Shown in pieces: positions 3,314 to 32,600 of a DNA stretch of 35,707 nt (its first letter is position 1; each line of letters starts with the position of its first letter). Source of the DNA: Acidimicrobiia bacterium (lineage in GTDB: Bacteria; Actinomycetota; Acidimicrobiia; IMCC26256; PALSA-555); assembly GCA_040902705.1 (NCBI GenBank), contig JBBDWT010000201.1:5488-41194 (forward strand), in the 5' to 3' direction. The position numbers and the translations under genes are program-made. Under the pieces are notes generated by a model that worked only from the letters and a program-made list of their open reading frames with translations, did not search any database and was not told where the DNA came from.

Positions 3314-3323
3314 CGCGCTTCGC

Positions 3324-4427: not shown

Positions 4428-4473
4428 CTTCCTCCCATGGCGACGTCGACAGGGCTCTCACCCGGGTCTCGCA

Positions 4474-5406: not shown

Positions 5407-5410
5407 GGCC

Positions 5411-6379: not shown

Positions 6380-6395
6380 GATCGCGACCTCGACG

Positions 6396-8083: not shown

Positions 8084-8162
8084 TACGATCCGTCGGCGGC
8101 CGACCGGAACCCCGGCCGGGGAGCGTCGAATGCTCCGATGCGTCAGCGCCCAGATCGTAGTG
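8081..8162. promoter_or_regulatory. divergent promoter region bounded by the 10-bp inverted repeat CACTACGATC, each arm containing a TACGAT -10-like hexamer
   Basis: cactacgatc at 8081-8090 and gatcgtagtg at 8153-8162; palindrome ccccggccgggg at 8110-8121. Confidence 0.4.
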
Positions 8163-8176
8163 CTCAGCAGCAGATC

Positions 8177-9514: not shown

Positions 9515-9515
9515 C

Positions 9516-14674: not shown

Positions 14675-14740
14675 CGTGCGAGCAGCCTATCGAACTCCCG
14701 GACCGGAACGTTCTGCCGTGAGCAGCGGTAGATTGCGCGC

Positions 14741-14756
14741 TGTGACCAGCTTCACA
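14741..14756. promoter_or_regulatory. CRP/GlxR-type binding site TGTGA-N6-TCACA in a divergent intergenic region
   Basis: tgtga-ccagct-tcaca is a perfect consensus. Flanked by candidate -10 hexamers TAGATT (14729-14734, +) and TAGGCT (14684-14689, -). Confidence 0.55.
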
Positions 14757-14761
14757 GACCT

Positions 14762-18290: not shown

Positions 18291-18305
18291 GGTAGCATCG
18301 GACTC

Positions 18306-18584
18306 GTGATGGCCAACGGGTCGGGGTTGGTCACACCCGACGACGCGGAGAACGAGCCGGAACCGGACCCTCCGCCCGCGCTCGATGCACTCGACCTCCG
18401 GGATCGCGTCGTGGGAATGCACGCCGAGCTCGACGAGATCTTCGCACGCCTCGACGACCTCCAGGCGCGACTCGATGCGTACGAGACGATGTCCGAGACC
18501 CGACGCGGCTTCGGCACGCGAGCGCGGGCACGGCTCGGACGCGTTCGCACGACCATCGTGCGTCGCGCCCGCCGATCTCAGTGA
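18306..18584 (+). CDS. small coiled-coil protein with basic amphipathic C-terminal tail
   Basis: Heptad stretch LRDRVVGMHAELDEIFARLDDLQARLDAY and an Arg-rich tail. TAGCAT (18293-18298) lies 7 nt before GTG 18306, as in leaderless genes (alternative ATG 18309). The stop overlaps the next start (GTGA). Confidence 0.65.
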   Translation: MMANGSGLVTPDDAENEPEPDPPPALDALDLRDRVVGMHAELDEIFARLDDLQARLDAYETMSETRRGFGTRARARLGRVRTTIVRRARRSQ

Positions 18585-20089
18585 GCACGAGCGAGAGTGC
18601 CGTGTCGATCGTCTGCATCGACCACGGACTCGGGCACGCTGAGATCGATGCAACCGCGGAATCGGTGACGCGCCAGATCGACCAGGACTGCGAGCTCCTC
18701 GTCGCGCTCCCTTCCGAGATCCGCGACACGCTCGGGCGCGCACGCGGTCGGTGGTTGATGCTCGTCGACGCGGGCGACCGGATCAGACCACACGCCATCG
18801 CCCAGCTCGCCGCCGCCACCGACGCCGATGCAGCGGTCGACTGCGTCTACAGCGACGAGTCGGGCCCCGACGCTTCGGGGGCCGAGCAGCCGTTCTACAA
18901 GCCCGACTGGTCGCCGGATCGGCTTCGTTGTCAGCCGTACCTCGGGCGGGCCGTGCTGGTCCGACGCGACCTCATCGACGAGGCCGGAGGATGGCGTCCC
19001 GAGCTCGGTCGGGTCGCAGAGTTCGACCTCATGCTGCGTGTCGGCGAGCTGAGCCGCCGCGTCGCGCACGTCGCGCACCCTCTGTGCCGTCGCCGCGGGC
19101 CCCAGCCGGAGTTCCTGTCGTTCGCGCCTGAAGACGTGGATGCCGGCTGCCGAGTCGTCGACGAGCACCTCGCCCGAACGGGAATCGCCGCGCGAGCCCG
19201 CCCCCACGCGTCCGCTTCGGGCCTGCTTCGCCTCGAGCCCGTGCTGGTCCGGCGGCCCCTCGTGAGCGTGATCGTGCCAACAGCCGGCACGCGCCGTGTC
19301 GTCCGTGGATCCGAGATCTCCCTCGTGGACTGCTGCGTGCAGAGTGTGCTCACCCGGTCGACGTATGCAGAGATCGAGGTGATCTGCGTCGTCGACGCCT
19401 CGGTCGACGACGACACCCGCGCCCGGCTCGTTGGCCTCGACCCCGCGCGCGTGCGGCTGGTCGACTTCAGCGAGCCATTCAATTTCGCCCGGAAGATCAA
19501 TCGCGGTGTGGTCGCGTCTCGGGGCGAGGTGCTCGTCCTGCTCAACGACGATACCGAGGTCCGCGAACCCGGATGGCTCGAGGCGATGCTCGTCTATGCA
19601 CTCGATCCAGAGGTCGGTGCCGTCGGCGCGCGGTTGCTCTTCGCCGATGACCGCATCCAACATGCGGGTGTTGCCGGCGTTCGGGGGAACCCGGGACATC
19701 CGTACTACGGGTTGCCGGCCGACACCGTGGGACATGGGGGGAACGCGCTGGTACCGAGCGATGTGCTCGCCGTCACCGCCGCATGCCTGATGACGAGTCG
19801 CGCCTGCTTCGAGTCCGTCGGTGGGCTCTCGGGTTCGTTCCCGGTCAACTACAACGACATCGACTACTGCTTGAAGCTCCGTCAGAACGGTCTCCGCATC
19901 GTCGTGACACCCGACGCGGTGCTGTACCACCACGAATCGTCCAGCCGGAGCGGTGAAGTCGCGCCGGACGAGCTCGCGCTGGTCCGCCGGCGATGGGGAC
20001 GGTGGTTGCGAGACGACCCCTTCTATGGGCCGAACTTCCCGTCCGGCAACGCCGACTTCGTGCCCGCGCCGGCTCCTAGTAGCCCTTGA
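18581..20089 (+). CDS. tandem GT2-GT2 glycosyltransferase (WsaE/RfbC-like)
   Basis: Motifs VYSDE, FYKPDWSP, VSVIVPT, FNFARKIN, LLNDD, IQHAG, VTAACL, YNDIDYCL, DPFY.PN. Confidence 0.88.
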   Translation: MSTSESAVSIVCIDHGLGHAEIDATAESVTRQIDQDCELLVALPSEIRDTLGRARGRWLMLVDAGDRIRPHAIAQLAAATDADAAVDCVYSDESGPDASGAEQPFYKPDWSPDRLRCQPYLGRAVLVRRDLIDEAGGWRPELGRVAEFDLMLRVGELSRRVAHVAHPLCRRRGPQPEFLSFAPEDVDAGCRVVDEHLARTGIAARARPHASASGLLRLEPVLVRRPLVSVIVPTAGTRRVVRGSEISLVDCCVQSVLTRSTYAEIEVICVVDASVDDDTRARLVGLDPARVRLVDFSEPFNFARKINRGVVASRGEVLVLLNDDTEVREPGWLEAMLVYALDPEVGAVGARLLFADDRIQHAGVAGVRGNPGHPYYGLPADTVGHGGNALVPSDVLAVTAACLMTSRACFESVGGLSGSFPVNYNDIDYCLKLRQNGLRIVVTPDAVLYHHESSSRSGEVAPDELALVRRRWGRWLRDDPFYGPNFPSGNADFVPAPAPSSP

Positions 20090-22571
20090 CCATCCGGCGA
20101 ATCCGGGTGACGACCTTCCTGGCGAGCTGACCCACCTCTCCGCGTCGTGCGAGCGCGAGCGCGCGGTCGACGTCGCGGCGGATCGTGCGCGGGCGCCAGG
20201 TCGCGATGTCGAGTGGGTCACGAACACTTGCCGCCAGCTCCGGATCGAGCAGGTCGGGCGCGCGGTCCGGCTCGCGGCAGTACGCGACCAGAGGAGCGAG
20301 GACTTCGCTCCAGACGAATCGCCTCGCGACCACCTCAGCAGCCTGGCGACACGACGCGCGCAGCTCGTCGTCCTCGAGGATCTGGTAGAGCGCTTCCTCC
20401 AGCGCGTCGACGTCCCCGGGGGGAACCGTCAATCCGAGACCCTCGGTCTCGACGAGCTCGGCGAGCGCGTCGCCACGGGTCGCGACCACTGGGAGCCCGG
20501 CCCACACGTAGTCGAGCACGCGTGTGCGGAAGGAGAACGCGGTCTCGACGTGGTCGAGATGCGTGCTCACGCCGACATCGGCCTCGAGGAGGTAGTTCGG
20601 TCGGTCGTCGTACGGCACCCAACCATCGTTGAAGAAGACGTGCTTGTCGATCAGCCCGAGCTCCTCGGCGAGCTCGAAGGTCTCGACCGTCATCCGCATC
20701 TCGCCGACGTCGGGGTTCGGGTGCTTCGTACCCAGGAAGTACACGCGCACCGACGGGAGTCGGCTCCGGAGCTTGTCCACCGCCCGCAAGAGCGTGAGCG
20801 GGTCGAACCAGTTGTAGATGCCGCCACCCCAGAGGATCAGCTTGTCGTCGTCGCCGATCCCGGGCACGACTCCCCGGAGCACCTTCCGGGTCGACTGCGG
20901 CGGTCGTTCGTCGACCCCGAAGGGCACGACCGCGATGAGGCCGTCGAGCTTCTCGCTCGTGTCGTAGTTGATCTCGTTGATCCGCCCGACTGCGGCCAGC
21001 TGACCGAGCCAGAAGTCGCGCTGCTTCTCGCTCGCGCACATGAGGAAGTCGGCCCGCATGAGCTGCTCGTTCAACACCTCGGTCGACGAACGCACGGCGA
21101 AGCGGCGAGCATCGTGGTGGAGATGGCGCGACTGCTCGAGAACCTCCAAGTGGAACGGGTCATAGACGTCTGCGACGACGATCTTCTTCGTGTCCCGGAA
21201 TGCCGAGTACTGCCGCATCAGGTTGCCCTGGAACACGATGACATCGGCCCATGCCTCGAGCTCGGTGAACGCGCGGTCGTCGGTCTGCATCACCGGGAAG
21301 TCCGGGTGCGAGAGCGTGGAAGGGTGCGGGCTGACGAGACACACCTCGTGCTCGGCCGAGAGGACCCGGGCGATGTGCCAGGCGCGGATCGCCGGGCCAG
21401 CCATCTTGGGCTGGAGGACATCGCCCGTCGCGACGAGGATTCGGCGACGCCGACCGAGGCGCGCGGCCGGATCGAAGATGCGGTTCACCGTGGCAAAGCC
21501 CTCGAGGAACCGCGGATCCTCGATGTTCGGCTTCAGCGGCGTGCCGAACAGTGGCGTGATCTCGTGATCGGGGCGACGCCGAGCCGCCTGGAGCTCGCGT
21601 CGGGCGAGATCGAGCTCGGGCAAGGCATCGAGGAAGGCGTCGATCGCATAGGTCGGCGCGATGGTCTGGCGCCGGATCGTCACGAGCTCCCCACCCCGGG
21701 TCGACGAATCGGCAGCAAGATCGAGCGCGCGCGGATCGTCGCCGCCGAGCGAGATCCCCCTGCGAATCGCCATCAGCAGTGTCGCCGGCAGCACCGCGCG
21801 AAGGTTGTCGTCGTCGTAGTTCTTGTAGATCGTGAAGAGCGCGTTGCGCTCGAGCAGAAAGTGCTCACGCCACGCACCGAACCGCGCCGCGGTCGCGTGA
21901 TGCTTGTGATACACGACGGAGCCGGGGACGTATCGGACGCGGTAGCCGAGCAACCAGAGCCGCCAGCCGAAGTCGACGTCCTCGAAGAACATGAAATAGC
22001 GCTCGTCGAACCCGTTGACGCGGCGGAACACCTCGGCACGCACGATCATCGCCGCGCCAGAGGCGAAGAGCACGTCGGTCGCGGTGTTCTCCAGCGGGCT
22101 CGCCGGCTTCCCGAAGTCGACCTTGAATCCGTGGCCGTAGTACGCGAGCGCAGCCCCGACGAAGTCGATCGTCGACCCATCCCAGCCGAGCACCTTGCTC
22201 GCGACGCATGCGATCGTCCCGTCGTACTCGAGGGGATGCAGTGCGGCTTGGAGCCAGTGCGGATGAGGGCGCGCATCGTTGTTGAGGAAGGCGACGTACT
22301 CGCCGGTCGCTCGCTCCACGCCGGCGTTGCACCCTCCCGCGAAGCCCACGTTCTCGCGCAGTGCTACGACATGAACCTCGGGGTGGGCGCCGCGAATACG
22401 CTGGACATCGTCGCCGGACGACGCGTTGTCGACGACGATGACCTCGAGCCGCTCGCCCGCCCAATCGAGCTCCTGTACCGCTTCGAGGCATGCGAGCGTG
22501 TCGTCGGCACCGTCGAAGTTCACGATGACGACCGACACGCGTCCGGCGTGCGTGGCCCTCACCAACTGCAT
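20076..22571 (-). CDS. GT2 + GT4 fusion glycosyltransferase
   Basis: AGGAGG Shine-Dalgarno before ATG. GT2 motifs VVDNAS, NVGFAGGCN, FLNND, FFEDVD. GT-B motifs MAGPAIR, LWGGGIYNWFD, SFRTRVLDY.WAGLPVV. Confidence 0.9.
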   Translation of the reverse strand: MQLVRATHAGRVSVVIVNFDGADDTLACLEAVQELDWAGERLEVIVVDNASSGDDVQRIRGAHPEVHVVALRENVGFAGGCNAGVERATGEYVAFLNNDARPHPHWLQAALHPLEYDGTIACVASKVLGWDGSTIDFVGAALAYYGHGFKVDFGKPASPLENTATDVLFASGAAMIVRAEVFRRVNGFDERYFMFFEDVDFGWRLWLLGYRVRYVPGSVVYHKHHATAARFGAWREHFLLERNALFTIYKNYDDDNLRAVLPATLLMAIRRGISLGGDDPRALDLAADSSTRGGELVTIRRQTIAPTYAIDAFLDALPELDLARRELQAARRRPDHEITPLFGTPLKPNIEDPRFLEGFATVNRIFDPAARLGRRRRILVATGDVLQPKMAGPAIRAWHIARVLSAEHEVCLVSPHPSTLSHPDFPVMQTDDRAFTELEAWADVIVFQGNLMRQYSAFRDTKKIVVADVYDPFHLEVLEQSRHLHHDARRFAVRSSTEVLNEQLMRADFLMCASEKQRDFWLGQLAAVGRINEINYDTSEKLDGLIAVVPFGVDERPPQSTRKVLRGVVPGIGDDDKLILWGGGIYNWFDPLTLLRAVDKLRSRLPSVRVYFLGTKHPNPDVGEMRMTVETFELAEELGLIDKHVFFNDGWVPYDDRPNYLLEADVGVSTHLDHVETAFSFRTRVLDYVWAGLPVVATRGDALAELVETEGLGLTVPPGDVDALEEALYQILEDDELRASCRQAAEVVARRFVWSEVLAPLVAYCREPDRAPDLLDPELAASVRDPLDIATWRPRTIRRDVDRALALARRGEVGQLARKVVTRIRRMVKGY

Positions 22572-22691: not shown

Positions 22692-23954
22692 CTAGTGCGC
22701 GGGCCGGGGGCTGAGGTCGGACAGGGCGTCGCTCCAGCGACCTCCGAGCGGCACGAGCCCGTTGCCCACGGGATCGCCGGCGCGGATGTGGAGCTCGTAG
22801 CCGTCGGGCAACGAGTCGAAGGCGTGCAGCTCGTGGCGGTCGGTGATCTGCGCGCCGACGACGAGCGTCCCGGGCAGGTAGTCGAGCCGATCGACGGTGC
22901 AGTCGAGATGTCCGGTGCCGTGCAGCTCGCCGGTGCGGATGCCCGCCATGTTCGTCGTGAGCACCGAGAGCGACACACCGGTCTCGGTGGCGACGGAGAT
23001 GCTGAAGTTCGGGTGGTCGACCCGCTTCCGGGCGTGGTAGTGGATGCGAAACGTGACGGCCGAGCCGGCACGCGGCAACGCGATGGGCTCACCGTCGGCG
23101 TCGAGCACGTCGAAGCCGATGATCTCGATGTCCCGATCTCCCGCCGCCGAGGTCGCGAGCGCGGTCTCGGTTCCTGTCGTGCGGGCGAGCCTCTCGGCCG
23201 TCGCGTCGGCGACCCGCTCGGTGTAGGCACGTGTCACCTCGATCGGCTGGCCGACCGCGAGGAGCCGGCCGTGGTCGAGCCATGCGATCCGATCGCAGAG
23301 CGTCTGCATGAGACCCACGCTGTGCGACACGACCACGATCGTCCGACCCTCACGGCGGATCTTGTAAAGGTGGTCGAAGCAACGATTCTGGAAGTCCGCG
23401 TCGCCGACCGCGATGACCTCGTCGATGATGAGCACGTCGGGGCGCACGTGGACCGAGACCGCGAACCCCAGCCGCACGTACATGCCGCTCGAGTAGACCT
23501 TGACGGGCGAATCGATGAACGACTCGAGCCCGGAGAAGTCGACGATCTCGTCGAACACCCGGTCGAGCTCGCGCTTGTCCAACCCTAGGATCGCGCCGTT
23601 CAGGTAGATGTTCTCGCGCCCCGAGAGCTCGGGATGGAACCCGGCGCCGAGCTCGAGGAGCGCCGAGACCCGACCCCGGGTCGTGACCTTCCCGCTCGTC
23701 GGCTGATGGATCCTGGCCATCAGCCGGAGGAGCGTCGACTTCCCCGAGCCGTTGTGGCCGATGAGCCCGAAGGACTCTCCGGCGCGTACGTCGAGCGACA
23801 CCTCGCGCAACGCCCAGAACTCCTCGTACGGGGTGCGGCGGAAGCGCGTCAATGCCTGCTTGAGGCTCGTCGGCTTGTCCTGGTACAGGCGAAAGCGCTT
23901 CGAGACGTCCTCGACCTCGATGGCGAGGCGCTGGCCTCGACCGTTGCCGCTCAT
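22692..23954 (-). CDS. wzt: polysaccharide ABC exporter ATP-binding protein with Wzt-C domain
   Basis: Walker A GHNGSGKST, LELGAGFHPELSGREN, YSSGM, IIDEV, SH; beta-rich C-terminal extension. ATG at 23954. Confidence 0.93.
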   Translation of the reverse strand: MSGNGRGQRLAIEVEDVSKRFRLYQDKPTSLKQALTRFRRTPYEEFWALREVSLDVRAGESFGLIGHNGSGKSTLLRLMARIHQPTSGKVTTRGRVSALLELGAGFHPELSGRENIYLNGAILGLDKRELDRVFDEIVDFSGLESFIDSPVKVYSSGMYVRLGFAVSVHVRPDVLIIDEVIAVGDADFQNRCFDHLYKIRREGRTIVVVSHSVGLMQTLCDRIAWLDHGRLLAVGQPIEVTRAYTERVADATAERLARTTGTETALATSAAGDRDIEIIGFDVLDADGEPIALPRAGSAVTFRIHYHARKRVDHPNFSISVATETGVSLSVLTTNMAGIRTGELHGTGHLDCTVDRLDYLPGTLVVGAQITDRHELHAFDSLPDGYELHIRAGDPVGNGLVPLGGRWSDALSDLSPRPAH

Positions 23955-23958
23955 CCGC

Positions 23959-24771
23959 TCAGAGCTCCTCGGCCAGCTCGGCCGAGCGTCGGGCGAACAA
24001 CCACCAGCCGAGGGCAAGGCTGCCGACGGCGACGGCCACCAGGTACGCCCACGTGTCCAGGGCGGGAACCTCGAGCAAGTAGAAGATCGAGCGGGCTGCT
24101 TCGACGAACTGGGTGAGCGGATTCGCCTCCACGATGTCGCGCATCGGGAGCCCCCAATGCTCCTCTGGGATCAGGTCGATCGTGTAGATGATCGGTGTCG
24201 CGTAGAAGAGGAACAGCAGCGCGATCGTGACCAGGTAACGCACGTCGCGGTAGTAGACGTTCATCATGGCGACGACGAGCCCGACGCCGGTCGAGAAGAG
24301 CATCAGCAACACGAGCAGCACGGGAAAGAGCAGGAAGGTGAGGGAGACGTTCCCGACCGCGATCATGACGGCAACGAGAAGACCGGCCTCGATGACCGTC
24401 TGGAGCACGGCCGCCAGCACCACGGACAGCGGGATGCATTCGGGTGGCAGGTACACCTTGCGGATGAGCGGCCCCGCTCCGACCATCCCTTCCATCGATC
24501 CGACGACTGCCGCGTTGAAGAAGTTCCACACGACGAGCGCGGTGAAGAGGTAGACGGCGTAGTTCTTCAGCTCGCCGTTGCCGGCGACCGGCGGGACCAC
24601 CTTCAAGAACACGCCGAACACCACGGAGTAGATGAGCAGCGTCGACGCGGGATTGAGGAGGGACCAGAGCCAACCCAGCACGCTCTTCTTGTACTTGGCC
24701 TTGAGCTCGCGCTGAGTCAGGTTCATCACGATGCTGCGATGGTTCCAGACCTCTGTGACGGGGGCGAGCAC
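23959..24771 (-). CDS. wzm: polysaccharide ABC exporter permease
   Basis: Motifs RELKAKYKKSVLGWLWSLLNP, LIRKVYLP, YYRDV, FYATPIIY, NP, AEEL. Confidence 0.93.
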   Translation of the reverse strand: MLAPVTEVWNHRSIVMNLTQRELKAKYKKSVLGWLWSLLNPASTLLIYSVVFGVFLKVVPPVAGNGELKNYAVYLFTALVVWNFFNAAVVGSMEGMVGAGPLIRKVYLPPECIPLSVVLAAVLQTVIEAGLLVAVMIAVGNVSLTFLLFPVLLVLLMLFSTGVGLVVAMMNVYYRDVRYLVTIALLFLFYATPIIYTIDLIPEEHWGLPMRDIVEANPLTQFVEAARSIFYLLEVPALDTWAYLVAVAVGSLALGWWLFARRSAELAEEL

Positions 24772-24945: not shown

Positions 24946-26181
24946 TCACTCCTCGTCGGACTCGGGACTCCTTCCATCGGTATGGACGCTCGCCGTATCC
25001 CACGTCGTGTCGAGTGCCGCGTAGCCGAGGATCTCGCGCGGCGTCCCGAGCTCGACCGAGATGGGCATGAGCTTGCTGCGGAAGTCGAACGGATGGGTGC
25101 ACGTCTCGTCGTGCACGGCGACGGTCACGTCATAGATGCCCGGCACCAGCATCAGCCGGTTGATCGTGAGGTCGATGTGGCCCTCGCCCGAGACCGTGTC
25201 GAACACGAGGCCGGAGTCGCGCGTGTTGGGCCCGGCGACGTAGGCGCCGTCGGCCGCCGTGATCCCGATGCCGAACACCGGCTTCTCGACGGGCTCGGCC
25301 GCGGAGTAGTGCATGCGGACCGTGATCCGGTCACCGGTGCGCACGTGATCGAGCGGGCGATCGTCGGGCCCGAGCAGCTCCACGGTGTCGATCCGGATCT
25401 CCCCTGACCCCCAGCGCGCACCGCCTGCGGGGTCGAACTCGCGGTCGTGGAAGACGTCGACGAGGTACTCGTCGATCACGTCGACCGCCGGCCCGACCGT
25501 GACGAGCCCGCCGTGCTCCAGCAGTGCGACGGTGTCACAGATGTTGCGGACCGACTCCATCGAGTGCGAGACGACGACGATCGTCCGCCCGCCGTGCTTC
25601 AGCTCGAGGATCTTCTCGGTGCAGCGCTGCTGGAACTCGGCGTCGCCGACCGCGAGGACCTCGTCGACCAGCAGGATCTCGGGGTCCACGCTGATCGCCA
25701 CCGAGAACCCGAGCCGCACATACATGCCCGACGAGTAGTTCTTGACCGGGCTGTCGATGAACTGCTCGATCCCGGCGAAGCCGACGATGTCGTCGAAGCG
25801 TTGATCGATCTGTCGGCTGGACAGACCGAGGATCGCGCCGTTGAGGTACACGTTCTCGCGCCCCGAGAGCTCCGGGTGGAAGCCCGCGCCGAGCTCGAGG
25901 AGCGCCGAGACCTTGCCGCGAGTGCTGATCGACCCGTAGTCGGGGCTGAGGATCTGGGCGATGCACTTCAGCAGCGTGCTCTTCCCCGACCCGTTCTCAC
26001 CGATCAGGCCCAGCGTCGCACCGACCGGGATCTCGAGGGAGACGTCGCGCAGCGCGAAGAACTCGTCGTAGCGCGCGCGTCCGCCGCGCAGGATCGCCGC
26101 CTTCAGCGACTGGTTCCGCTCGTGGTAGAGGCGGAACCGCTTCGTGACGTGGTCGACCGTGATCGCCGGCACCGCGCTCAC
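24946..26181 (-). CDS. wzt: polysaccharide ABC exporter ATP-binding protein with Wzt-C domain (second copy)
   Basis: Motifs GENGSGKST, YSSGM, LLVDEV; RWGSGE-led C-terminal domain. Confidence 0.93.
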   Translation of the reverse strand: MSAVPAITVDHVTKRFRLYHERNQSLKAAILRGGRARYDEFFALRDVSLEIPVGATLGLIGENGSGKSTLLKCIAQILSPDYGSISTRGKVSALLELGAGFHPELSGRENVYLNGAILGLSSRQIDQRFDDIVGFAGIEQFIDSPVKNYSSGMYVRLGFSVAISVDPEILLVDEVLAVGDAEFQQRCTEKILELKHGGRTIVVVSHSMESVRNICDTVALLEHGGLVTVGPAVDVIDEYLVDVFHDREFDPAGGARWGSGEIRIDTVELLGPDDRPLDHVRTGDRITVRMHYSAAEPVEKPVFGIGITAADGAYVAGPNTRDSGLVFDTVSGEGHIDLTINRLMLVPGIYDVTVAVHDETCTHPFDFRSKLMPISVELGTPREILGYAALDTTWDTASVHTDGRSPESDEE

Positions 26182-27116
26182 AGGGCCTCCCCGCGGCGCG
26201 GGATGGCACGACGGATCAGCCTGCGGGTTCCGCTCACTGCCCGCACGATCGGGTTGCGCATGATCCCGGCCGTCTCCGCGGCCTGGCGATCGCGCTCGGT
26301 GAGCAGGTCGTTGAGCTCCCCGATGACCTCGTCGCGTTCGAGCACGTCGGCGACGCGCTCCGCGATGATCTGGTCGCGCACTCGGATCATCTCCGACTGG
26401 TCGCGGAACTGGAGCCGCCCGATGTGCTCACCCCATCGTCCTGCGTAGTAGCCCCGCCAGCGTTCGAACTCGTCGCCGAACAGGTAGTCGAACCCGTCGA
26501 CACCCTTGGGGAACAGCACCCCGAGACCGAGCGAGTGCTGGAAGTCGAAGGTCCGGTACTCCTTCACCAGCTCCTTCCAGAACACCGCGGAGCCCATATC
26601 GGTGTTCGCGGCGATGTCGTGGAGGAGCACGACTCCTCCCGGCGCGACCTTCGGCAGCCAGGTCTCGAAGTCATCCTTGACGGCGTCGTAGTCGTGGCAG
26701 CCATCGATGTGCAACAGGTCGATCGAGCTGTCGGCGAAACCGCCGACCGCGTCCCGGAAGAGCGACCGGTGCAGCTCGATGGCCATGTCCGCGAACTCGG
26801 CGTCGCGGATGCGAGTCACCGTCTCGTACACATCATCGCCGTACGCGCCGGTGAAGGAGTCGCCCTCCCAGGTGTCGACGGCATGCAACAACGGGTGCCA
26901 GCCCTCGTCCCGAGCGGCTTGCGCGAAGGTGAACAACGAGACCCCGTACTGGGTGCCGAGCTCGACGATGAGGTCCGGGCGCCCCCAGCGCACGAGGTCG
27001 TACCCGAACCATCGGTGCCCGGCCCAGAGCGCCGACGCGCGATCTGGATCATGACGATCCCCGACGAACTCGGGGTCGTGCACCGTCCACTGCCGGCCGG
27101 TCGGGTGCCAGCTCAC
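26178..27116 (-). CDS. Methyltransf_24-type SAM methyltransferase + coiled coil + amphipathic tail (putative chain-terminating/capping enzyme)
   Basis: Motifs VELGTQYGVS, AVDTWEGD, IDLLHIDGCHDY, PGGVVLLHD, then heptad repeats. GTGA overlaps on both sides. Confidence 0.85.
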   Translation of the reverse strand: MSWHPTGRQWTVHDPEFVGDRHDPDRASALWAGHRWFGYDLVRWGRPDLIVELGTQYGVSLFTFAQAARDEGWHPLLHAVDTWEGDSFTGAYGDDVYETVTRIRDAEFADMAIELHRSLFRDAVGGFADSSIDLLHIDGCHDYDAVKDDFETWLPKVAPGGVVLLHDIAANTDMGSAVFWKELVKEYRTFDFQHSLGLGVLFPKGVDGFDYLFGDEFERWRGYYAGRWGEHIGRLQFRDQSEMIRVRDQIIAERVADVLERDEVIGELNDLLTERDRQAAETAGIMRNPIVRAVSGTRRLIRRAIPRRGEAL

Positions 27117-27964
27117 ACTTCCTCCGCGAGGCGTCGCTGGTGCCGGTCGAAGAACCAGTATCCGAACACGAGGACGCCGACGGCCCATGCCACGAGGTAC
27201 AGCATCGTGTCGAGCGGCGGGAACCGCAGGTCGTAGAGCACGTCACGGTACGCCTGCACGAGCTGCACGAGCGGGTTGAGCCGATAGATCGTTCCGAGCG
27301 GGATCTCCATCCCGAGGAAGTCCGCGGTGTCGGGGACGACCGAGATCGGGTACACGATCGGCGTCGAGTAGAAGAGCGCCTGCATCGCGATGGCGATGAA
27401 GTGCTTGACGTCTCGGAAGTACACGTTGGCGACGCTCAGCAGCAGGCTGATGCCGAAGATGAACAGCGTCTCGATCGCGATCATCACGAGCACCATCGGG
27501 ATCCACGGGATGACGAAGTTCCCGGCGATCAGCAGGACCACCAGCACAACCGACATCTCGATGAACATCGACACGAGCAGGGATCCGACAACGGCCATCA
27601 CGAGGATGTCGCGCGGGAAGTACACCTTCTTGATGAGCCCGGCGTTCCCCACGAGCGCTTCGAGGGAGCTCTGCACGCTGTTGGAGAAGAACGTCCATGG
27701 GATGAGCGCGCACAACAAGTAGATCACGAAGTTCTGGAGCCCCGACGGATCACCGCGCGGAGGCTCGATCTGGAGGAAGAACCCGAAGACGAGCCAGTAG
27801 ATCGCCACCATGGCCAGCGGGTTCAGCAACGACCACGTCCAGCCGAGCGCCGACTTCTTGTATCGGCCGCGGAGCTCCCGCAGCGTCAGGTTGATCACGA
27901 GGTCGCGGCGTTCGATCGCATCCGCGAAGCGGCGGACGACGCGCGGGCGTCCGAGCTGCATCAC
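27113..27964 (-). CDS. wzm: polysaccharide ABC exporter permease (second copy)
   Basis: Motifs RELRGRYKKSALGWTWSLLNP, LIKKVYFPR, YFRDV, FYSTPIVY, LAEEV. Start GTG 27964 or ATG 27961. Confidence 0.92.
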   Translation of the reverse strand: MMQLGRPRVVRRFADAIERRDLVINLTLRELRGRYKKSALGWTWSLLNPLAMVAIYWLVFGFFLQIEPPRGDPSGLQNFVIYLLCALIPWTFFSNSVQSSLEALVGNAGLIKKVYFPRDILVMAVVGSLLVSMFIEMSVVLVVLLIAGNFVIPWIPMVLVMIAIETLFIFGISLLLSVANVYFRDVKHFIAIAMQALFYSTPIVYPISVVPDTADFLGMEIPLGTIYRLNPLVQLVQAYRDVLYDLRFPPLDTMLYLVAWAVGVLVFGYWFFDRHQRRLAEEV

Positions 27965-29142
27965 CAGGGGAGCTCGCTCGCCGCGCCGCGAATGGCAAGC
28001 ATCGTGTGCGTGTGATCCGGCGCCGGCTGGCGCGCGACGAGCCGGAGCGTGTCGAAGAAGTCGGAGGACGACTGGTCCCAGTCGGGCCACGCGCGCGCCG
28101 TGCGCAATGCACCGTGGCGGAGATCCCGGACCAGGTCGGAACGATCTCGCAACGTCCGCACCGCTTCGATCACCGCGCCCCGGTCGTACATCGGTACGAC
28201 GAGACCGTTCACCCCGTCGCGCACGAACTCGTCCGAACCGGTGACGTCGTACGTGACGACCGTGCCGCCGCAGTGGAACATCTCGAGCGGCGGTCCGTAC
28301 ATGCCTTCGACGTGGCTCAGCTTCAAGAGGACGGGGCACGACCGGTAGATGGCGGGGGTCTGCTCGATCGGGACCCGGGAGAACACGCGGTCCACCCCCC
28401 GGAGCTCGGTCAGGTCGCTCGACGTGAGCAGCCAGATCTCGTCTGCACCCCCGGAGCGCGCGAGCTCGACGGCGTCCTCCACGTTCTTCATCGGCACCTC
28501 GATCGGGCCTTCGATCAGCACCCGGAGGCGGATCCCGCTCTCGGGGGCGACGGTCGGTCCGACCGGGGTGTACACGTCCTTGCGAATCCCGTTGTGGACG
28601 AGGAACGACGGGCGTCGATGCTCGAAGGCGAGGTACGCCTGGATCCACCGGGCGATGGTGATGACCGGGAGATCGAACGTGTACGTGAGGGCCGCGAGCG
28701 GCGGTGCCCAGGAGTCCGTCGTGCCACCGTAGAAGCGCGACTCGACCGACTGCACGAAGTAGACCGCGTGCCGACAGCGCAGGCGGGGCAGCTCGTACAC
28801 GGTGCGCCACATCGTCGCGACGACGACGTCGAACTCGCGATCCTCGGCGTCCGCCAGCGAGAGCAGCGGTAGCTCCTGGAGCGCCTCGTGCCACGTGCCG
28901 TACTCGGGCTGATGCTCGAACATGTGCACGATCGTCACGTCGGCACCCTGGCGCTTCGCGTACAGGGCGTGCTGGAGGATGACGTACGTCCCGCCGCTGA
29001 TATCGGTCGAACCGATCAGGAACGCGATCGACAATGGTCCGTCGGCACCGCGCGAGGGCGCCGCGAACCTCGAGAAGTACTCGTGGAGGAACGGGTCGCC
29101 CGCCGATCTGCCCACGCGCGTCCGTTCCTCTCGCCCGGGCAT
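27961..29142 (-). CDS. GT4-family (GT-B) glycosyltransferase
   Basis: ATG 29142 (TGATG overlap). Motifs ISGG..VI.QHA, VVATMWRT, YFVQSVE, KN, EGMYGPPLEMFHCG. Confidence 0.85.
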   Translation of the reverse strand: MPGREERTRVGRSAGDPFLHEYFSRFAAPSRGADGPLSIAFLIGSTDISGGTYVILQHALYAKRQGADVTIVHMFEHQPEYGTWHEALQELPLLSLADAEDREFDVVVATMWRTVYELPRLRCRHAVYFVQSVESRFYGGTTDSWAPPLAALTYTFDLPVITIARWIQAYLAFEHRRPSFLVHNGIRKDVYTPVGPTVAPESGIRLRVLIEGPIEVPMKNVEDAVELARSGGADEIWLLTSSDLTELRGVDRVFSRVPIEQTPAIYRSCPVLLKLSHVEGMYGPPLEMFHCGGTVVTYDVTGSDEFVRDGVNGLVVPMYDRGAVIEAVRTLRDRSDLVRDLRHGALRTARAWPDWDQSSSDFFDTLRLVARQPAPDHTHTMLAIRGAASELPW

Positions 29143-32100
29143 CAGTGCAGCTCCTTCCACATCTCGCGCAGGATCTCGAGCGCTCGCGCGGGGAGCCAGG
29201 CACGGTAGCCCGGCACCCACTGGCTCCTCCGCGCCTCCTCGCTCACGACCTCGGTTGCCCCGACACGGGAGAGGAGCGAGCGCTGGGGCTGCTCCTTGGC
29301 GAACGGCGACACGTTCATCGCGCCGAACGTGTCGTCGTGCGACGATCCGAACCAGATGTCGGCGACGCCACCCGGTGGTCGACCGTAGTAGTCGATCACG
29401 GTCTCGTTGAGCTCGCGCCGCAGCATGCTCGTGGTCAGCCCGTTCTCCACGAGCCAGTCCGCGACGCGTGGTGCCGCGGCAAGCACCCCGGCCTGGAACG
29501 AACGGATCTCCGACGACGCGCGCGGCCCCTCGTGCTCGTGCACGGGCATCGACCGCCCATCGGCACGAATCGCGTAGTCCACGACGGAGGGCACGTCGGG
29601 CGTCAGCGGAGCCTCGATCGCGGCCGGCGGACTCACGAGGGTGAACGGCTCGCCCGCGTTCCCGTCGAAGGCGACGGCGTGCTTCGTGACGTTCGCGAGC
29701 TGCTCGTTGAGGAAGGGGAAGAGTCCGAGATACACGCCGACGAGACGGCGTTCCGGGAGCAGGCGAGCCAGGTTGTCCTGGATGGTCCCGCGCCATCCGA
29801 CGTCGACCATGACCAGCTCTCGCTCGGAGTCGTCGATCTGCTGATGGAGGTATGCCTCGAAGGCGCGCCGCCGGTCGTCGAGCTTCGCCTCGACCCGCGC
29901 TCGTACCTCGGGCAGCTCGAGCAACGCGAGCGCTCGTTCGTCGTCCGCGATCGACGGAACGACCTCGTCGAGCGAGAGGCCGACCGCGAGCACCTCCTCG
30001 GCGAACCCGTCCGCACCGACGCCGATCGACTCGAACAGCGCCCTCGGAGACTGGTCCGCGTACTGCGACCACATCCGCGACAGCTCCTGCGGCTGCAGCG
30101 ACGACAACGAGACGCCGAAGGTCGACCGTCGGCTGACGTCGAGATGGCGCCCGACAGGGGGCGTCATCGATCCGGCGAGCCGCGGCGCCACCAGGTCGTG
30201 CACCTGCCGGAGGAACGCGCCCTCGCGACTGAGGTAGTACACGCTCCGCAGCCCGCGCCCCAGTGCCTCTTCGACTGCGGCCGCGACCAGGGCGACGGGA
30301 AGCAGCGCCGTGAGCACACCGGCGTGCGCGGCGCGGCGCTCGGTCTCGCCGCGCCCCGCGTCGGAGACGAGCACATCCACGACGCGGAGGAGATCGTCGT
30401 GCTGCGCGGCGACGAGCGCGCCGAGGTGCTCGGGAGTGAGCTCTCCGGGACCGGGCAGCGGTGAGGGCGAGATCCGCACCAGCGCCGCGAGTCCCCCGCC
30501 CGCGACCTGGCGCTCGCCGTCGGACCAGGGGTTGTCGCCGATGTGAAGGTGTCGTTCCGGCGCGACGCCGAACCGCGACCGCACGAGCTCGAAGAGCTCT
30601 CCGTCGACCCGTTTCGAGGCCGACACATCGCACGAACAGAGCACCTCGATGTCGTCGAGGACGACACCGCACGACTCGAGCACCGCACTGAGGTCGTTGG
30701 CGGACAGGTAGAAGTCGGAGAGGACCGCGAGCTTCGGTGGCGTCGGACGATCGCGCAGCGCTTCGAGCACAGCGACGACGTCGTCGATCCGCTCGGTGCA
30801 GCGGCACTCCTCCTCGGCTTCTTCACGCGCGAGCTCCGCCGCGATCGGCCGCGCCTTGCGCGCGCTGAGCCCGAGCACCTCGCTGAGATGACGGCTGAGC
30901 ACGTCGTCGAGGCGGTACTCCTCGTGCGCGCTGCTGGCAGCGATGGCGGCTTCCGCCGCGACGCGCCCGCGGAACAGGTCCCAGGGAGTCGTCCCCTCGG
31001 GCAGGTCGCGGTGATGACGTAGGAAGATCCGGCGGGCCGTGGCGAGCTTGGGCGCGTCGGCCGGCCTGGTCCGCACCACCAGCGTGTCCCACAGGTCGAA
31101 GGTCACGAGCTCGACGTCGGCTCGCGCGAGCGCATCCAGCGTGACCAGACGCGCCGGCTGGTCCGGCGTGAGGAGCTCGCACTCGACGATCGTGCGCTGC
31201 GCGCTCGGCGGGAGCGCTCCGGCCGAGGTTGCCCGCCGGCGTTGCTCGGGGTTCGCGTAGAACCCGGTCGCATATCCGACCGTCCAGTAGTGCTCGAGCG
31301 GGCTCCTGCCCGTGGCCCGGACCTCGGGGTGGCGATCGAGGTACCAGCGCGTGCGCAGGAGCGGCGACGGATCATGGCCGACGACCCACCCCTGCTCCAG
31401 GTGGTGCTCGAGCGGGTTCCGACCCAACGCGGCGACATCGCGGTAGCGCCGGAGGTACCAATCGGTCCAGAACAGCGCTGAGGGGTCTCGACCTTCTGTC
31501 CAGCCGCTGCTGCGGTAGTGCTCCAACGGGTCGACGCGTGCGGCCGCGACATCGGGGTACCGGTCGAGGTAGTACTCGGCGTCGAACACGCTGGCGAGGC
31601 GCTCGTCGAGGTCGGCTGCTCCACCGATCGTGATCCTCAGGTTCGTGCCGAGATGTCGATTCGTCACCCGGACCGCTCGCCGAGCCCCCCGCAGCAGCTT
31701 GCGAAGGATGCGGCGCGTCATCGTGACCGGCACGATCGGAGGTGCCGCGGCAACATCGCCGCCTTCGTCTCCGGTTGCCACGCGCCCGGCGTGCTCGAGC
31801 TCGCGCCGGGTGATCTCGACTTCGGAGCGGAGCACGTCGATCTCGCGCTCGTGGTCCGCGATGGTCGAGTCGCGCGCTTCGAGCGCCGCCGTGTGCTCTC
31901 GGAGCTGGAGCTCGTCGAGCGCGGCTCGGGCACGCACCTCGTAGTACGACTTCCAGCGCGCGAGCTCGTCGCCGACGAGCACGTCGAGACGCTCGGTGCC
32001 CTTGGGCAACAGCAGCCCGAGACCGAAGGAGTGCTCGAACGCCAACGACGGGTTCGTCGAGCTGACCTCGCCCCACAGCTGCGCGGAACCCGTGCGCGTC

Positions 32101-32600
32101 CAGGATGCGACCCCGTGGAGCAGCACGACCCCGTTCGGCGCGAGCTTCGGGAGCCAGGCCTCGAACGTGTCCTTCAGCTCGTCGAACGACTCGACGATGC
32201 CGAGCACCAGCAGATCGACGGACTCGTCGTCGACCGCGACGAGTGCGTCGTGCGCGAGCCCCCGGTGGAGGTGGACGTCGAGCCCCGGGAACACGGACGC
32301 GCGGATCCGCTCGACGACCTCGACCCCGCCGTCCGCGCCGGTCGACGAGAGCTCCCAGCTGTCGACCGCGTGCAGGGTCGCTGTCCGGCCGCGGTCACGT
32401 ACCGCCTGGCAGCACGCGAAGAGCACTGCGCCGGAGCGGGCGCCGAGCTCGACGACGACGTCCGGCCCGCCCCATGCGACGAGGTCGTAGACGAAGTTGC
32501 GATGCCCGGACCACGGGCCGACCGCGTGGGTCGGGTCGAGGTCGTCGGAAGCGAACCGCGGCGTGGAGAGGACCCACGGATGTTCGCTGGTGCTCCACAT
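29142..32600 (-). CDS. multidomain protein: pseudo-methyltransferase + coiled coil + 3 repeats + HAD phosphatase + glycan phosphoribosyltransferase (putative ribofuranosyltransferase, GT136-type)
   Basis: HAD motifs FDLWDTL, LSDFY, SK, HIGDN..SD; then YLSREG, VSRRS and VDVGWRGTIQ. The N-terminus aligns with 26178..27116. Confidence 0.8.
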   Translation of the reverse strand: MWSTSEHPWVLSTPRFASDDLDPTHAVGPWSGHRNFVYDLVAWGGPDVVVELGARSGAVLFACCQAVRDRGRTATLHAVDSWELSSTGADGGVEVVERIRASVFPGLDVHLHRGLAHDALVAVDDESVDLLVLGIVESFDELKDTFEAWLPKLAPNGVVLLHGVASWTRTGSAQLWGEVSSTNPSLAFEHSFGLGLLLPKGTERLDVLVGDELARWKSYYEVRARAALDELQLREHTAALEARDSTIADHEREIDVLRSEVEITRRELEHAGRVATGDEGGDVAAAPPIVPVTMTRRILRKLLRGARRAVRVTNRHLGTNLRITIGGAADLDERLASVFDAEYYLDRYPDVAAARVDPLEHYRSSGWTEGRDPSALFWTDWYLRRYRDVAALGRNPLEHHLEQGWVVGHDPSPLLRTRWYLDRHPEVRATGRSPLEHYWTVGYATGFYANPEQRRRATSAGALPPSAQRTIVECELLTPDQPARLVTLDALARADVELVTFDLWDTLVVRTRPADAPKLATARRIFLRHHRDLPEGTTPWDLFRGRVAAEAAIAASSAHEEYRLDDVLSRHLSEVLGLSARKARPIAAELAREEAEEECRCTERIDDVVAVLEALRDRPTPPKLAVLSDFYLSANDLSAVLESCGVVLDDIEVLCSCDVSASKRVDGELFELVRSRFGVAPERHLHIGDNPWSDGERQVAGGGLAALVRISPSPLPGPGELTPEHLGALVAAQHDDLLRVVDVLVSDAGRGETERRAAHAGVLTALLPVALVAAAVEEALGRGLRSVYYLSREGAFLRQVHDLVAPRLAGSMTPPVGRHLDVSRRSTFGVSLSSLQPQELSRMWSQYADQSPRALFESIGVGADGFAEEVLAVGLSLDEVVPSIADDERALALLELPEVRARVEAKLDDRRRAFEAYLHQQIDDSERELVMVDVGWRGTIQDNLARLLPERRLVGVYLGLFPFLNEQLANVTKHAVAFDGNAGEPFTLVSPPAAIEAPLTPDVPSVVDYAIRADGRSMPVHEHEGPRASSEIRSFQAGVLAAAPRVADWLVENGLTTSMLRRELNETVIDYYGRPPGGVADIWFGSSHDDTFGAMNVSPFAKEQPQRSLLSRVGATEVVSEEARRSQWVPGYRAWLPARALEILREMWKELH
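31248..31589 (-). repeat. three tandem 38-aa intragenic repeats (F...[YW]YL..YPDV......PLEHY...GW..G..P)
   Basis: VFDAEYYLDRYPDVAAARVDPLEHYRSSGWTEGRDPSA / LFWTDWYLRRYRDVAALGRNPLEHHLEQGWVVGHDPSP / LLRTRWYLDRHPEVRATGRSPLEHYWTVGYATGFYANP. Confidence 0.9.

Follow-up and report, generated by a model that had tools for sequence, protein, structure and literature searches.

A degenerate methyltransferase head on a predicted ribofuranosyltransferase protein, and its intact free paralogue, in a Wzm/Wzt locus of an uncultured actinobacterium

Introduction

Coiled-coil chain terminators are known from ABC-transporter-dependent O-antigen assembly, for instance WbdD (E. coli O8/O9a) and ORF6 (K. pneumoniae O7) (PMC11231755). 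In the Gram positive Geobacillus stearothermophilus NRS 2004/3a, WsaE carries an N-terminal capping methyltransferase that acts on the S-layer glycan (PMC2943079). A third relevant enzyme is MeT1 of Mycobacterium hassiacum (6g7d/6g80), the 1-O-methyltransferase of the methylmannose polysaccharide (PMC9883506).

We have analyzed a stretch of 35,707 nucleotides (the window) from an uncultured actinobacterium, in which a methyltransferase-like head is fused to a coiled coil and a predicted ribofuranosyltransferase, with an intact duplicate of the head and stalk found a few genes downstream, between wzm and wzt. The locus has features of the terminator type (WbdD, WbbB, ORF6-O7, WsaE), namely a predicted order of catalytic domain, coiled coil and membrane-proximal helix, and a Wzt_C module on the exporter ATPase. 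By analogy, the methyltransferase-stalk proteins may act as terminators here, and the cap would sit on the non-reducing end. We consider it probable that a coiled-coil terminator cassette was duplicated, that the free copy kept catalysis and that the fused head became a pseudoenzyme with a likely structural role. Besides these genes, the window has a second pair of Wzm and Wzt and three further genes for class I methyltransferases.

Results

Organization of the locus

The genes and segments considered here are the following:

29142..32600, minus strand: fused gene P0001, 1152 aa, with the part order pseudo-methyltransferase, coiled coil, basic helix, three repeats, HAD-type phosphatase (PRP) and phosphoribosyltransferase-like domain (gPRT) (ORF and translation; PF13578, PF00702; 7shg, E 7e-20)
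31935..32600, minus strand: degenerate Methyltransf_24 head, residues 1-222 (42% identity to the free copy; AF2; Foldseek)
31773..31970, minus strand: coiled-coil segment, residues 211-276 (one long AF2-predicted helix, H211-276)
31650..31727, minus strand: basic amphipathic helix (MTRRILRKLLRGARRAVR...), residues 292-317 (AF2 helix)
31251..31601, minus strand: three repeats of ~40 aa (Y..R.PDV...PL.HY..GW.EGRDPS), residues 334-450 (sequence)
29145..31118, minus strand: predicted CrpP/CriT-type ribofuranosyltransferase module (HAD phosphatase and PRPP-type transferase), residues 495-1152 (phmmer, PF00702)
27961..29142, minus strand: GT4-like glycosyltransferase, 393 aa (frame and GC3 analysis; weak NCBIfam GT4 matches)
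27113..27961, minus strand: Wzm1, ABC-2 permease, 282 aa (PF01061, 47.5 bits)
26178..27116, minus strand: free active-type methyltransferase, 312 aa, with catalytic domain, coiled coil and basic helix (PF13578, 92.5 bits)
24946..26181, minus strand: Wzt1, ABC ATPase with C-terminal carbohydrate-binding module (PF00005, 76.2 bits; PF14524 Wzt_C, 87.2 bits)

The codon-position GC of the fused gene was 0.75/0.48/0.88, and that of the head (0.71/0.47/0.93) was of the coding type. Contigs of runs X2, X3 and X5, which come from other studies, covered 31941..32600 gap-free at ~99% identity, so the degenerate head is not an assembly artefact. The ~40-aa repeats are common to many unrelated multidomain proteins. 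The GT4 gene, whose ATG overlaps the stop of the fused gene by 1 nt, is kept downstream of it in G014, G204, G118, G097, L019 and L028, and Wzt_C was also found on Wzt2 (45.5 bits). As for the free methyltransferase, its start is likely GTG 27116: this codon and the stop of wzm overlap in GTGA, as do the stop of the gene and the wzt start, the orthologues start at the matching MWH, and the nearest database cluster (P0052) is 312 aa long.

The two methyltransferase proteins are clear paralogues. BLASTP aligned P0001 with P0002, the 336-aa ORF that contains the free copy (26178..27188), with 127/305 identities (42%, E 4e-69) over residues 2-303 of the former and 27-329 of the latter, that is, over the catalytic domain, the coiled coil and the basic helix. 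Both were matched by PF13578 (Methyltransf_24) above the curated cutoff of 26.3 bits, the fused head with 46.1 bits (residues 50-162) and the free copy with 92.5 bits. The C-terminal half of P0001 is, by its sequence, a CrpP/CriT-type ribofuranosyltransferase: in phmmer searches of the PDB, residues 496-962 matched 7shg, named 'Ribofuranosyl transferase' (chain 35-493), with E 7e-20, and Bcs3 with E 8.1e-6, and the FD..DT, SDFY, GDN..SD and DVGW+GTIQDNL stretches are present together with PF00702. The original prediction, made from the letters of the DNA, thus stands in its description of the locus: the N-terminus of P0001 does align with the methyltransferase at 26178..27116, for which the predicted start was probably the right one; the alignment and the overlapping gene ends bear out a pair of methyltransferase paralogues in one tightly coupled operon; all four substitutions quoted are present in the sequence; and the assignment of the C-terminal half to the ribofuranosyltransferases holds.

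The AF2 model of the P0001 head (pLDDT 84.6) has the same order of strands and helices as that of the free copy (pLDDT 86.9), and only the loop 84-89 was poorly predicted. MeT1 (6g80/6g7d) was the best Foldseek match of the free copy (E 2.5e-11), its top structural neighbours being MeT1 and Mg-dependent O-methyltransferases, and the matches of the head were cation-dependent O-methyltransferases of the same class. Both domains have in the predicted models a Rossmann-type alpha/beta fold like that of MeT1, CCoAOMT and COMT. Helices were predicted in the free copy at 239-310 and 313-328 (336-aa numbering); in the alignment, helix 211-276 of P0001 lies opposite the long helix of its free paralogue, and basic amphipathic segments are found in both proteins, helix 292-317 of P0001 having the highest hydrophobic moment of the region.

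Residue losses in the fused head

As a yardstick we used the 50 alignment columns that are at least 90% conserved among 48 active-type domains. All 50 are kept in the free copy and 36 in the P0001 head, the range over six degenerate domains being 31-39. In P0002 numbering, the head has lost S84, Y116, F144, three residues of HIDGxH (H160, D162, H165) and D191 of HD, and the loop after beta-2 lacks G109 and G114 besides Y116 and has a 3-residue deletion. At the end of beta-4 the head reads V-L-G-I-x-E for H-I-D-G-x-H, and at the end of beta-5 H-G for H-D. Both motifs, which align with those of MeT1 (6g7d), are present in the free copy and lost in all five fused domains at the genus level. The same five have lost S84, Y116, F144, H160, D162 and H165, with replacements that vary by genome (V/Q/V/Q/Q at H160, E/L/A/P/Q at H165), and in all of them the H190/D191 pair is affected, broken differently in each genome. 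We take D162, H165, H190 and D191 to be the metal ligands and the base, going by their position and by what is known of COMT and CCoAOMT rather than by residue-level superposition.

Motif I (E-L-G-x-x-x-G-x-S, the SAM loop) was hit only in part. E51, L52, G53 and G57 are kept in the P0001 head and S84 of P0002 corresponds to V59, the Ser after motif I being lost in 5/5 genus-level fused domains; the degenerate domain of L019, a distant metagenome locus, is additionally without E76, L77 and G78 (P0002 numbering). D80 of P0001 (the D of 'AVD') is kept; G014 has E at this position and the other four genus-level domains have D. The HR-F-YDL motif at the N-terminus is kept too. Judging from these residues, the P0001 head would be catalytically dead. 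The proposal that the catalytic motifs had been selectively lost is right for HIDGxH, HD and the loop after beta-2, which together with F144 hold the important losses, and for the Ser after motif I; it is wrong for the glycine loop of motif I and for D80. That of a pseudoenzyme, with its fold kept and its active site gone, agrees with the loss of residues at least 90% conserved under a fold predicted to be kept, with the reservation that motif I is incompletely affected.

Distribution and phylogeny

The losses are shared by the orthologues of the genus-level clade, where 5/5 fused domains are degenerate (G000, G014, G204, G205 and P0007), but mostly not beyond it: of 17 related proteins (P0005-P0021), 15 have an intact domain and two a degenerate one. 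P0005, with an intact head, is sister to the degenerate clade. Since orthologues from outside the genus mostly have an intact domain, the degenerate head was derived at the level of the genus and goes with the presence of the free copy. Four of the five genomes of the window's genus (G000, G014, G204, G205) have the degenerate fused copy together with the intact one between wzm and wzt, and the fifth (G049) has neither. In the sister genus (G097, G118) the fused domain is intact, there is no free copy and wzm is directly followed by wzt; Wzt1 is orthologous to the single Wzt of this genus (identities of 75-77% in the NBD and 53-55% in the CBM).

A census of the window and 160 loci gave 54 domain matches, of which five were degenerate, each in a locus with a separate intact copy, and the domain was intact in 42/42 single-copy loci, some of them redundant records of one genome. 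In the trees the free copies (support 100/99) nest within the clade of the fused domains of their own lineage (98/96, 99/91). The free and fused copies of L019 are sisters (99/98, 100/98), with end branches of 0.23-0.30 and 1.44-1.47, respectively. They record an independent event of duplication and decay, and the same live/dead pattern arose a second time, in the L019 lineage. The four genomes of the genus are kin, so the association of live and dead copies rests on only two independent events. Duplication has not always led to decay, since L112 keeps two intact copies.

Proposed history and alternatives

The history that we favor would start from an ancestral 'terminator on a stalk', the form that most members of the family would have, made of an N-terminal O-methyltransferase of the cation-dependent type and, behind it, a coiled coil, a basic helix that would seek the membrane, and a polymerase module (PRPP-type ribofuranosyltransferase and its phosphatase), with a GT4 and a Wzm/Wzt pair as neighbours, the ATPase bearing a glycan-end-binding module. 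In the ancestor of the genus, methyltransferase, coiled coil and basic helix would have been duplicated as one cassette, and the duplicate would have landed between wzm and wzt, where its translation is coupled to that of both neighbours. Having kept all conserved residues, the free copy would have taken over and now supply the methylation, which would be the chain-end cap read by Wzt1 rather than an internal decoration, a view against which the second exporter pair and the further methyltransferases of the window have to be weighed. The original head would have been stripped of the residues placed to bind metal, to serve as base and to contact SAM. It would still fold, under a constraint that is relaxed yet real, with a few new conserved residues specific to the genus. 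Its role would most likely be structural, in that it keeps head and stalk of the ribofuranosyltransferase protein assembled, and it may dock the free enzyme.

The main alternative is a pure relic, a redundant head in decay that stays in frame only to spare the ribofuranosyltransferase downstream and foldable only to spare the protein as a whole, and that neither binds nor scaffolds anything; we think this rather unlikely. Comparison of the genus members gave identities of only 52-57% for the fused head, 69-71% for its free paralogue and 63-70% for PRP and gPRT, which together form the best conserved module of the fused protein; in the sister genus the most conserved part is the intact head (72%). 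The head therefore evolves faster than its free paralogue and the remainder of its own protein, with a dN (0.31-0.40) near that of the linker (0.45-0.51). The long branches of the fused copies, 1.44-1.47 in L019, and the replacements that differ between genomes fit a relic too. Moreover, in the split-gene relatives (L018, L021, L022, L026, L110, L112, L114, L115 and L116) the second ORF starts at the basic helix (equivalent to P0001 292-317) and the ribofuranosyltransferase is encoded with no methyltransferase domain in cis, so the head is not generally needed for it. The open frame of the head is itself no evidence that the head matters, because essential domains lie downstream in the same ORF. 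What speaks against mere decay is a constraint that seems to persist. The dN/dS of the head is 0.40-0.61, a relative value because dS is near saturation (pS 0.40-0.55). Among the five degenerate domains 73/199 ungapped columns are invariant, near the level of five active ones (92/222); H33, R34, D39, Q65, D69, D125, D129, K152 and H190 (P0001 numbering) are kept in all six degenerate domains, L019 included; and seven residues are invariant solely in the degenerate domains, with W167, R169 and L175 clustered just past the former HD motif. The model of the head is confident, and among the genus genomes and census loci no lineage with a degenerate head was found to have shortened or removed it.

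The same conserved cluster, which adjoins the former active site, could instead mark a reader domain that binds the glycan end or SAM/SAH and serves as non-catalytic sensor or substrate holder for the polymerase or the free enzyme, and the retention of the motif-I glycines, the beta-2 acidic residue and the HR-F-YDL motif would suit such a function. We find this quite improbable, given that the SAM-contacting Ser has gone from every genus-level domain and that L019 has also lost the E-L-G of motif I. It is hardly credible that catalysis persists in the fused head, be it by a non-canonical active site or as a new reaction: the head does match the Methyltransf_24 profile above threshold and its fold is predicted to be kept, but the lost positions have been replaced by no alternative conserved polar set (V/Q/V/Q/Q, G/G/T/G/G, E/L/A/P/Q) and no two genomes have the H-D pair broken alike. 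The duplicated cassette with a probably structural pseudoenzyme head is the reading that we prefer.

Possible docking of the free enzyme

The original prediction had the dead head hetero-oligomerise with the active copy. Complex prediction gave a median ipSAE of 0.35 for the pair (runs 0.64, 0.22 and 0.35), versus 0.01 for the best control; the runs share at least 71% of the contacts and the pLDDT of the partner is at least 82. The pass mark was a score of at least 0.32 and at least 0.20 above every control, reached by 58/80 solved complexes and 2/110 mismatched pairs, and among the passes those with scores up to 0.60 comprised only seven solved complexes and both mismatches. The pair passes, so the prediction gains some ground, but the score is weak and may reflect likeness only, because the two chains are paralogues. 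In its strong form, the dead head would be half of an obligate mixed assembly on which the free methyltransferase docks head-to-head or stalk-to-stalk, a live/dead design evolved at least twice; we would call it unlikely. If true, capping would be confined to the tip of the stalk that the ribofuranosyltransferase itself carries, the pair would be a counterpart, in bacterial glycan assembly, of METTL3-METTL14-type pairs, and it would offer a new means to tune chain length.

Comparison with known systems

METTL3-METTL14 and DNMT3A-DNMT3L are eukaryotic RNA and DNA methyltransferases in which a dead paralogue stands beside the live enzyme in a demonstrated obligate complex. Here too a dead paralogue is kept beside a live one, with the differences that the dead copy belongs to another enzyme as one of its domains and the complex is only weakly predicted.

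MeT1 is the solved structure closest to the free copy (Foldseek E 2.5e-11, phmmer E 1e-3), with only ~20% identity. Both have the IDGxH and HD motifs, and MeT1 also methylates the end of a polysaccharide; unlike the free copy it has, in the part of the source available, no coiled coil and no coupling to an exporter, its polysaccharide being cytoplasmic (PMC9883506). The ribofuranosyltransferase of Thermobacillus composti (7shg) and the CrpP/CriT of Bcs3 (8a0c; PMC10299916) resemble P0001 over the phosphatase and transferase parts. P0001 differs from both in carrying an N-terminal head, stalk and repeats ahead of this module, whose use of PRPP is predicted.

WsaE belongs, like the system described here, to a Gram-positive Wzm/Wzt-dependent pathway, with the methyltransferase N-terminal to polymerising glycosyltransferase domains and with overlapping wzm, wzt and transferase genes; its chain-ending 2-O-methyl cap is thought to be read by Wzt (PMC2943079). 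It differs in that its methyltransferase domain is catalytically active, its polymerising domains are rhamnosyltransferases instead of a ribofuranosyltransferase and, in the available part of that source, no free paralogue is described (PMC2943079).

With WbdD and ORF6 the locus shares a methyltransferase, here the putative terminator, on a coiled coil followed by a membrane-proximal region, polymerase modules on the same protein (O7) or recruited to it, and a Wzt with a module that, here, would read the cap; K. pneumoniae O4 and O7 likewise use a two-domain PRPP-dependent ribofuranosyltransferase (PMC11231755). Profile searches gave no kinase family match in the fused or the free protein, the kinase domain being that of the WbdD-O9a and ORF6-O7 subtype, and the locus resembles the methyl-only terminator subtype (O8, WsaE). 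A literature search, carried out short of full texts, returned no description of a degenerate stalk head together with a free terminator-plus-stalk protein. Unlike in WbdD and ORF6, the methyltransferase is here of the Methyltransf_24, cation-dependent class, the stalk protein includes the ribofuranosyltransferase as a fusion, and the terminator head of the stalk is degenerate and accompanied by a second, free terminator-plus-stalk protein.

Gene organization of the operon

We have analyzed an operon of tightly coupled genes on the minus strand of the window (24946-32600). The window has a G+C content of 70% and belongs to contig C201 of a 3.18-Mb genome in 239 contigs. The genes are:

29142..32600, minus strand, fused gene coding for 1152 aa
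27961..29142, minus strand, GT4-like glycosyltransferase, 1-nt overlap with the stop of the fused gene
27113..27961, minus strand, wzm (ABC exporter permease), 1-nt overlap with the gene before
26178..27116, minus strand, small (free) methyltransferase, GTGA overlap at either junction
24946..26181, minus strand, wzt (exporter ATPase) with a carbohydrate-binding Wzt_C module

Beyond the operon there is a second wzm/wzt pair, together with large multidomain glycosyltransferases. The ATG at 27188 that would open a longer, 336-aa ORF of the free copy is a GTG (plus-strand T>C) in the contigs of all four other runs, a loss that fits the GTG at 27116 as real start of this gene. For the fused gene, an internal start at M294 was rejected, the methionine not being kept in two genomes of the same genus (G014 and G204) and the upstream composition being of coding type.

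An intact methyltransferase and its degenerate fused paralog

As originally predicted, the two methyltransferases are paralogs: residues 2-303 of the large protein align with the small one with 127/305 identities (BLASTP, E 4e-69) along the catalytic domain, the long helix and the basic helix. Both pass the Methyltransf_24 threshold, with 46.1 bits for the N-terminal domain of the fused protein (residues 1-222, the fused head) and 92.5 bits for the free copy; NCBIfam provided no name for either. The substitutions quoted for the fused head are all present in the sequence, although the claimed loss of motif I holds only for the Ser that follows it, since the E-L-G...G pattern is still there in the alignment. 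Strand beta-2 also still ends in its acidic residue.

We have compared 48 active-type domains (intact fused heads, free copies and more distant free homologs), leaving out duplicate records (G097 and G118, of the sister genus) and the free copy of G205, of the window's own genus, whose frame is disrupted. Fifty columns were at least 90% conserved; the free copy has all 50, the fused head of the window 36, and the five genus-level fused heads between 31 and 39. S84, Y116, F144, H160, D162 and H165 (numbering of the 336-aa ORF) are absent in all five, and the H190/D191 pair is broken in each of them. The replacement residues vary among genomes, which speaks against the emergence of a new, conserved active site. 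Stretches IDGxH and HD of the family align with MeT1 (6g7d). Lying where beta-4 and beta-5 end, they would by position correspond to the metal ligands and the base of COMT/CCoAOMT-type enzymes, an assignment that rests on the known features of that class together with the motif alignments.

The free copy was modeled with a pLDDT of 86.9, its best structural matches being MeT1 and Mg-dependent O-methyltransferases. The model of the fused head was also confident (pLDDT 84.6), with strands and helices in the order seen in the free copy, matches to the same structure class and poor prediction confined to a shortened loop (84-89). A PDB profile search with 22 active homologs added only weak matches, to CmcI and to coiled coils. 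The fused-head region was covered free of gaps by contigs of three runs from other studies, and among the variants listed from other runs (V123F and two synonymous changes, 69 more differences existing) none restored a lost residue of the head. Judged from these sequence comparisons, the designation of the fused head as a putative pseudoenzyme is well supported.

Distribution among relatives

The large protein was matched in six of 201 order-level genomes and the small one in six of 43 family-level genomes. Motifs were intact in 15 of the 17 related proteins (P0005-P0021), the degenerate ones being P0006 and P0007. The expectation that orthologs would have lost the same residues was borne out in all five genus-level heads, but not outside the genus, where most relatives are intact. 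In the genome of the window and in three of the same genus (G014, G204 and G205), the fused head is degenerate and an intact free copy lies between wzm and wzt; both are missing from G049, also of this genus. The sister-genus genomes G097 and G118 have an intact fused head, with wzt coming straight after wzm.

In a census covering the window and 160 fetched loci, 54 domain matches reached a length of 120 aa or more. Five were degenerate (the window, L019, and the loci L105, L120 and L132 of G014, G204 and G205, respectively), all of them accompanied by an intact separate copy. The single-copy loci were intact in 42 of 42 cases, some of them redundant records, and L112 was the sole locus with two intact copies. 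A relative at genus-level depth, L028 (1..6755), has the order GT-wzm-wzt and no free methyltransferase, its contig ending inside the fused gene so that the N-terminal head falls off it; identities there were 65% for the fused C-terminus, 84% for the GT, 80% for Wzm, 75% for Wzt and 82% for an 831-aa glycosyltransferase.

A split-gene form was found at L022 (2201..3181 and 3178..5724) and also at L018, L021, L026, L110, L112, L114, L115 and L116. Its first ORF (ca. 300-326 aa) codes for the methyltransferase and coiled coil and its stop overlaps the ATG of the next, of ca. 848 aa, which starts at the basic helix and continues with the repeats and the ribofuranosyltransferase. As these relatives show, there are transferases of this kind with no head in cis. 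In the long-read assembly of G205 (L104/L132) frame shifts interrupt the fused gene and the free copy alike, and are probably sequencing errors rather than true decay. The genome of the window has one more match to the free methyltransferase, the third and a short one, in contig C204 (20397..20546, L003): 50 aa around HIDGxH/HD (E 4.9e-9) in a 235-aa open frame. Among the few genomes available, no pattern of co-variation was visible between the stalk lengths of fused and free copies.

Duplication history

We have built two trees, of 39 and 56 rows, from which duplicate records, the near-identical L088, two short pieces and the disrupted free copy of G205 were dropped. In both, the free copies of the genus (100/99) nest within a clade of fused heads from their own lineage and from the sister genus (98/96; 99/91). 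Therefore, the free gene is a local duplicate of head, stalk and helix and not an import. Its position relative to the intact P0005 had a support of 95/79 in one tree and was an open trichotomy in the other.

At L019 the free and fused copies are mutual sisters (99/98; 100/98), the fused branch being about five times longer, and the gene arrangement is unlike that of the window, the free copy lying upstream in divergent orientation. Duplication and decay took place here a second time, independently. A third duplication, at L112/L119, lies in a clade in which the methyltransferase was already a separate gene, and there both copies have all key residues, i.e., it is a duplication without decay:

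L112, 9677..9105, minus strand, methyltransferase copy
L112, 10001..10642, plus strand, methyltransferase copy
L119, 9573..8926, methyltransferase copy

Constraint on the fused head and its possible role

Within the genus, identity between genomes was 52-57% for the fused head, 69-71% for the free copy and 63-70% for the phosphatase and transferase parts. The sister genus shows its highest conservation in the intact head (72%). Nei-Gojobori dN/dS values were 0.40-0.61 for the degenerate head versus 0.25-0.38 for the free catalytic domain, of which only the ranking is meaningful because dS is near saturation. A serious rival to a scaffold or docking role is that the head is a relic, retained foldable and in frame; its open frame proves nothing, since it lies upstream of essential domains. 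Invariant columns were 73/199 among five degenerate heads versus 92/222 among five active domains. Many polar residues of the family are retained in the degenerate heads, L019 included. Seven residues are conserved only in the degenerate heads, three of which (W167, R169 and L175, fused-protein numbering) follow directly after the former HD motif.

The original prediction had the fused head forming hetero-oligomers with the active copy. We modeled head plus stalk (1-310) with the free copy (25-336), one alignment each, and obtained a median score of 0.35 (runs 0.64, 0.22 and 0.35; best control 0.01), rated by the tool as 'weak support'. Its pass mark (at least 0.32, and at least 0.20 above every control) is reached by 58/80 solved complexes and 2/110 mismatched pairs, and among those passing only seven solved complexes and both mismatches score 0.60 or less. 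The runs share at least 71% of contacts, with a partner pLDDT of at least 82. As the chains are paralogs, the score may reflect their likeness only. That the degenerate head may act as a scaffold or docking site is a hypothesis.

Exporters and the wider glycan locus

Wzt1, encoded beside the free copy, is the ortholog of the single Wzt of the sister genus, with identities of 75-77% (ATPase part) and 53-55% (binding module), while the binding module of Wzt2 reaches only 31-33%. These values fit a cap chemistry that may have stayed the same. The second Wzm/Wzt pair (22692..24771, minus strand), whose binding module is 31-33% identical to that of Wzt1, is located downstream of wzt1 in the window, whereas in G014 and G204 it lies on the upstream side of the fused gene; it is absent in the examined stretches of G118, G097 and L028. 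It suggests a second exported glycan in the genus of the window. The remainder of the window (3..20227) is one large glycan locus with two DUF2142 membrane proteins, a DegT aminotransferase next to a GFO/IDH/MocA oxidoreductase, GT2 enzymes, one protein of 1200 aa that combines GT2 and WsaF-like parts, and three further class I methyltransferase genes:

3324..4427, class I methyltransferase
16000..17181, class I methyltransferase
17151..18743, class I methyltransferase

Comparison with known systems

Chain terminators on coiled-coil stalks control how long many bacterial surface glycans become and act as a gate to export. Here a stalk-borne terminator appears to have lost its activity, its place being taken by a free copy with its own stalk and membrane helix, a natural experiment carried out twice independently and with fused-active and cleanly split relatives as controls. 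The need for a terminator in cis on the polymerase-bearing stalk, the degenerate head as docking site and the redistribution of modules between polypeptides in glycan assembly lines become testable. In a full-text literature search of limited depth, neither an inactive terminator domain nor a degenerate head replaced by a free terminator was found described. What is new is the state from which the family started, where the free copy came from, and that the event recurred.

Three repeats of ca. 40 aa (Y..R.PDV...PL.HY..GW.EGRDPS) were found at 31251..31601 (fused residues 334-450). Their matches (44-52% identity, about 9-10% of the query) are RTX-type calcium-binding proteins, proteases, sulfotransferases and glycosyltransferases, and the repeats are an unnamed, widespread module.

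Residues 496-962 of the fused protein match a solved ribofuranosyltransferase (7shg, E 7e-20) and Bcs3 (E 8.1e-6); a protein atlas linked this C-terminal module only to 'HAD family hydrolase' clusters. The family order is therefore methyltransferase, coiled coil, basic helix, repeats and ribofuranosyltransferase. Passages of PMC10299916 and PMC11231755 describe the two-domain PRPP-dependent ribofuranosyltransferase, a HAD-like phosphatase plus a transferase, as well as terminators borne on coiled coils and cap-reading modules of Wzt. In the Gram positive WsaE, according to a portion of PMC2943079, an N-terminal capping methyltransferase is fused to polymerizing transferases. With this locus, the PRPP-dependent ribofuranosyltransferase family gains a fusion to head and stalk, found in uncultured Acidimicrobiia.
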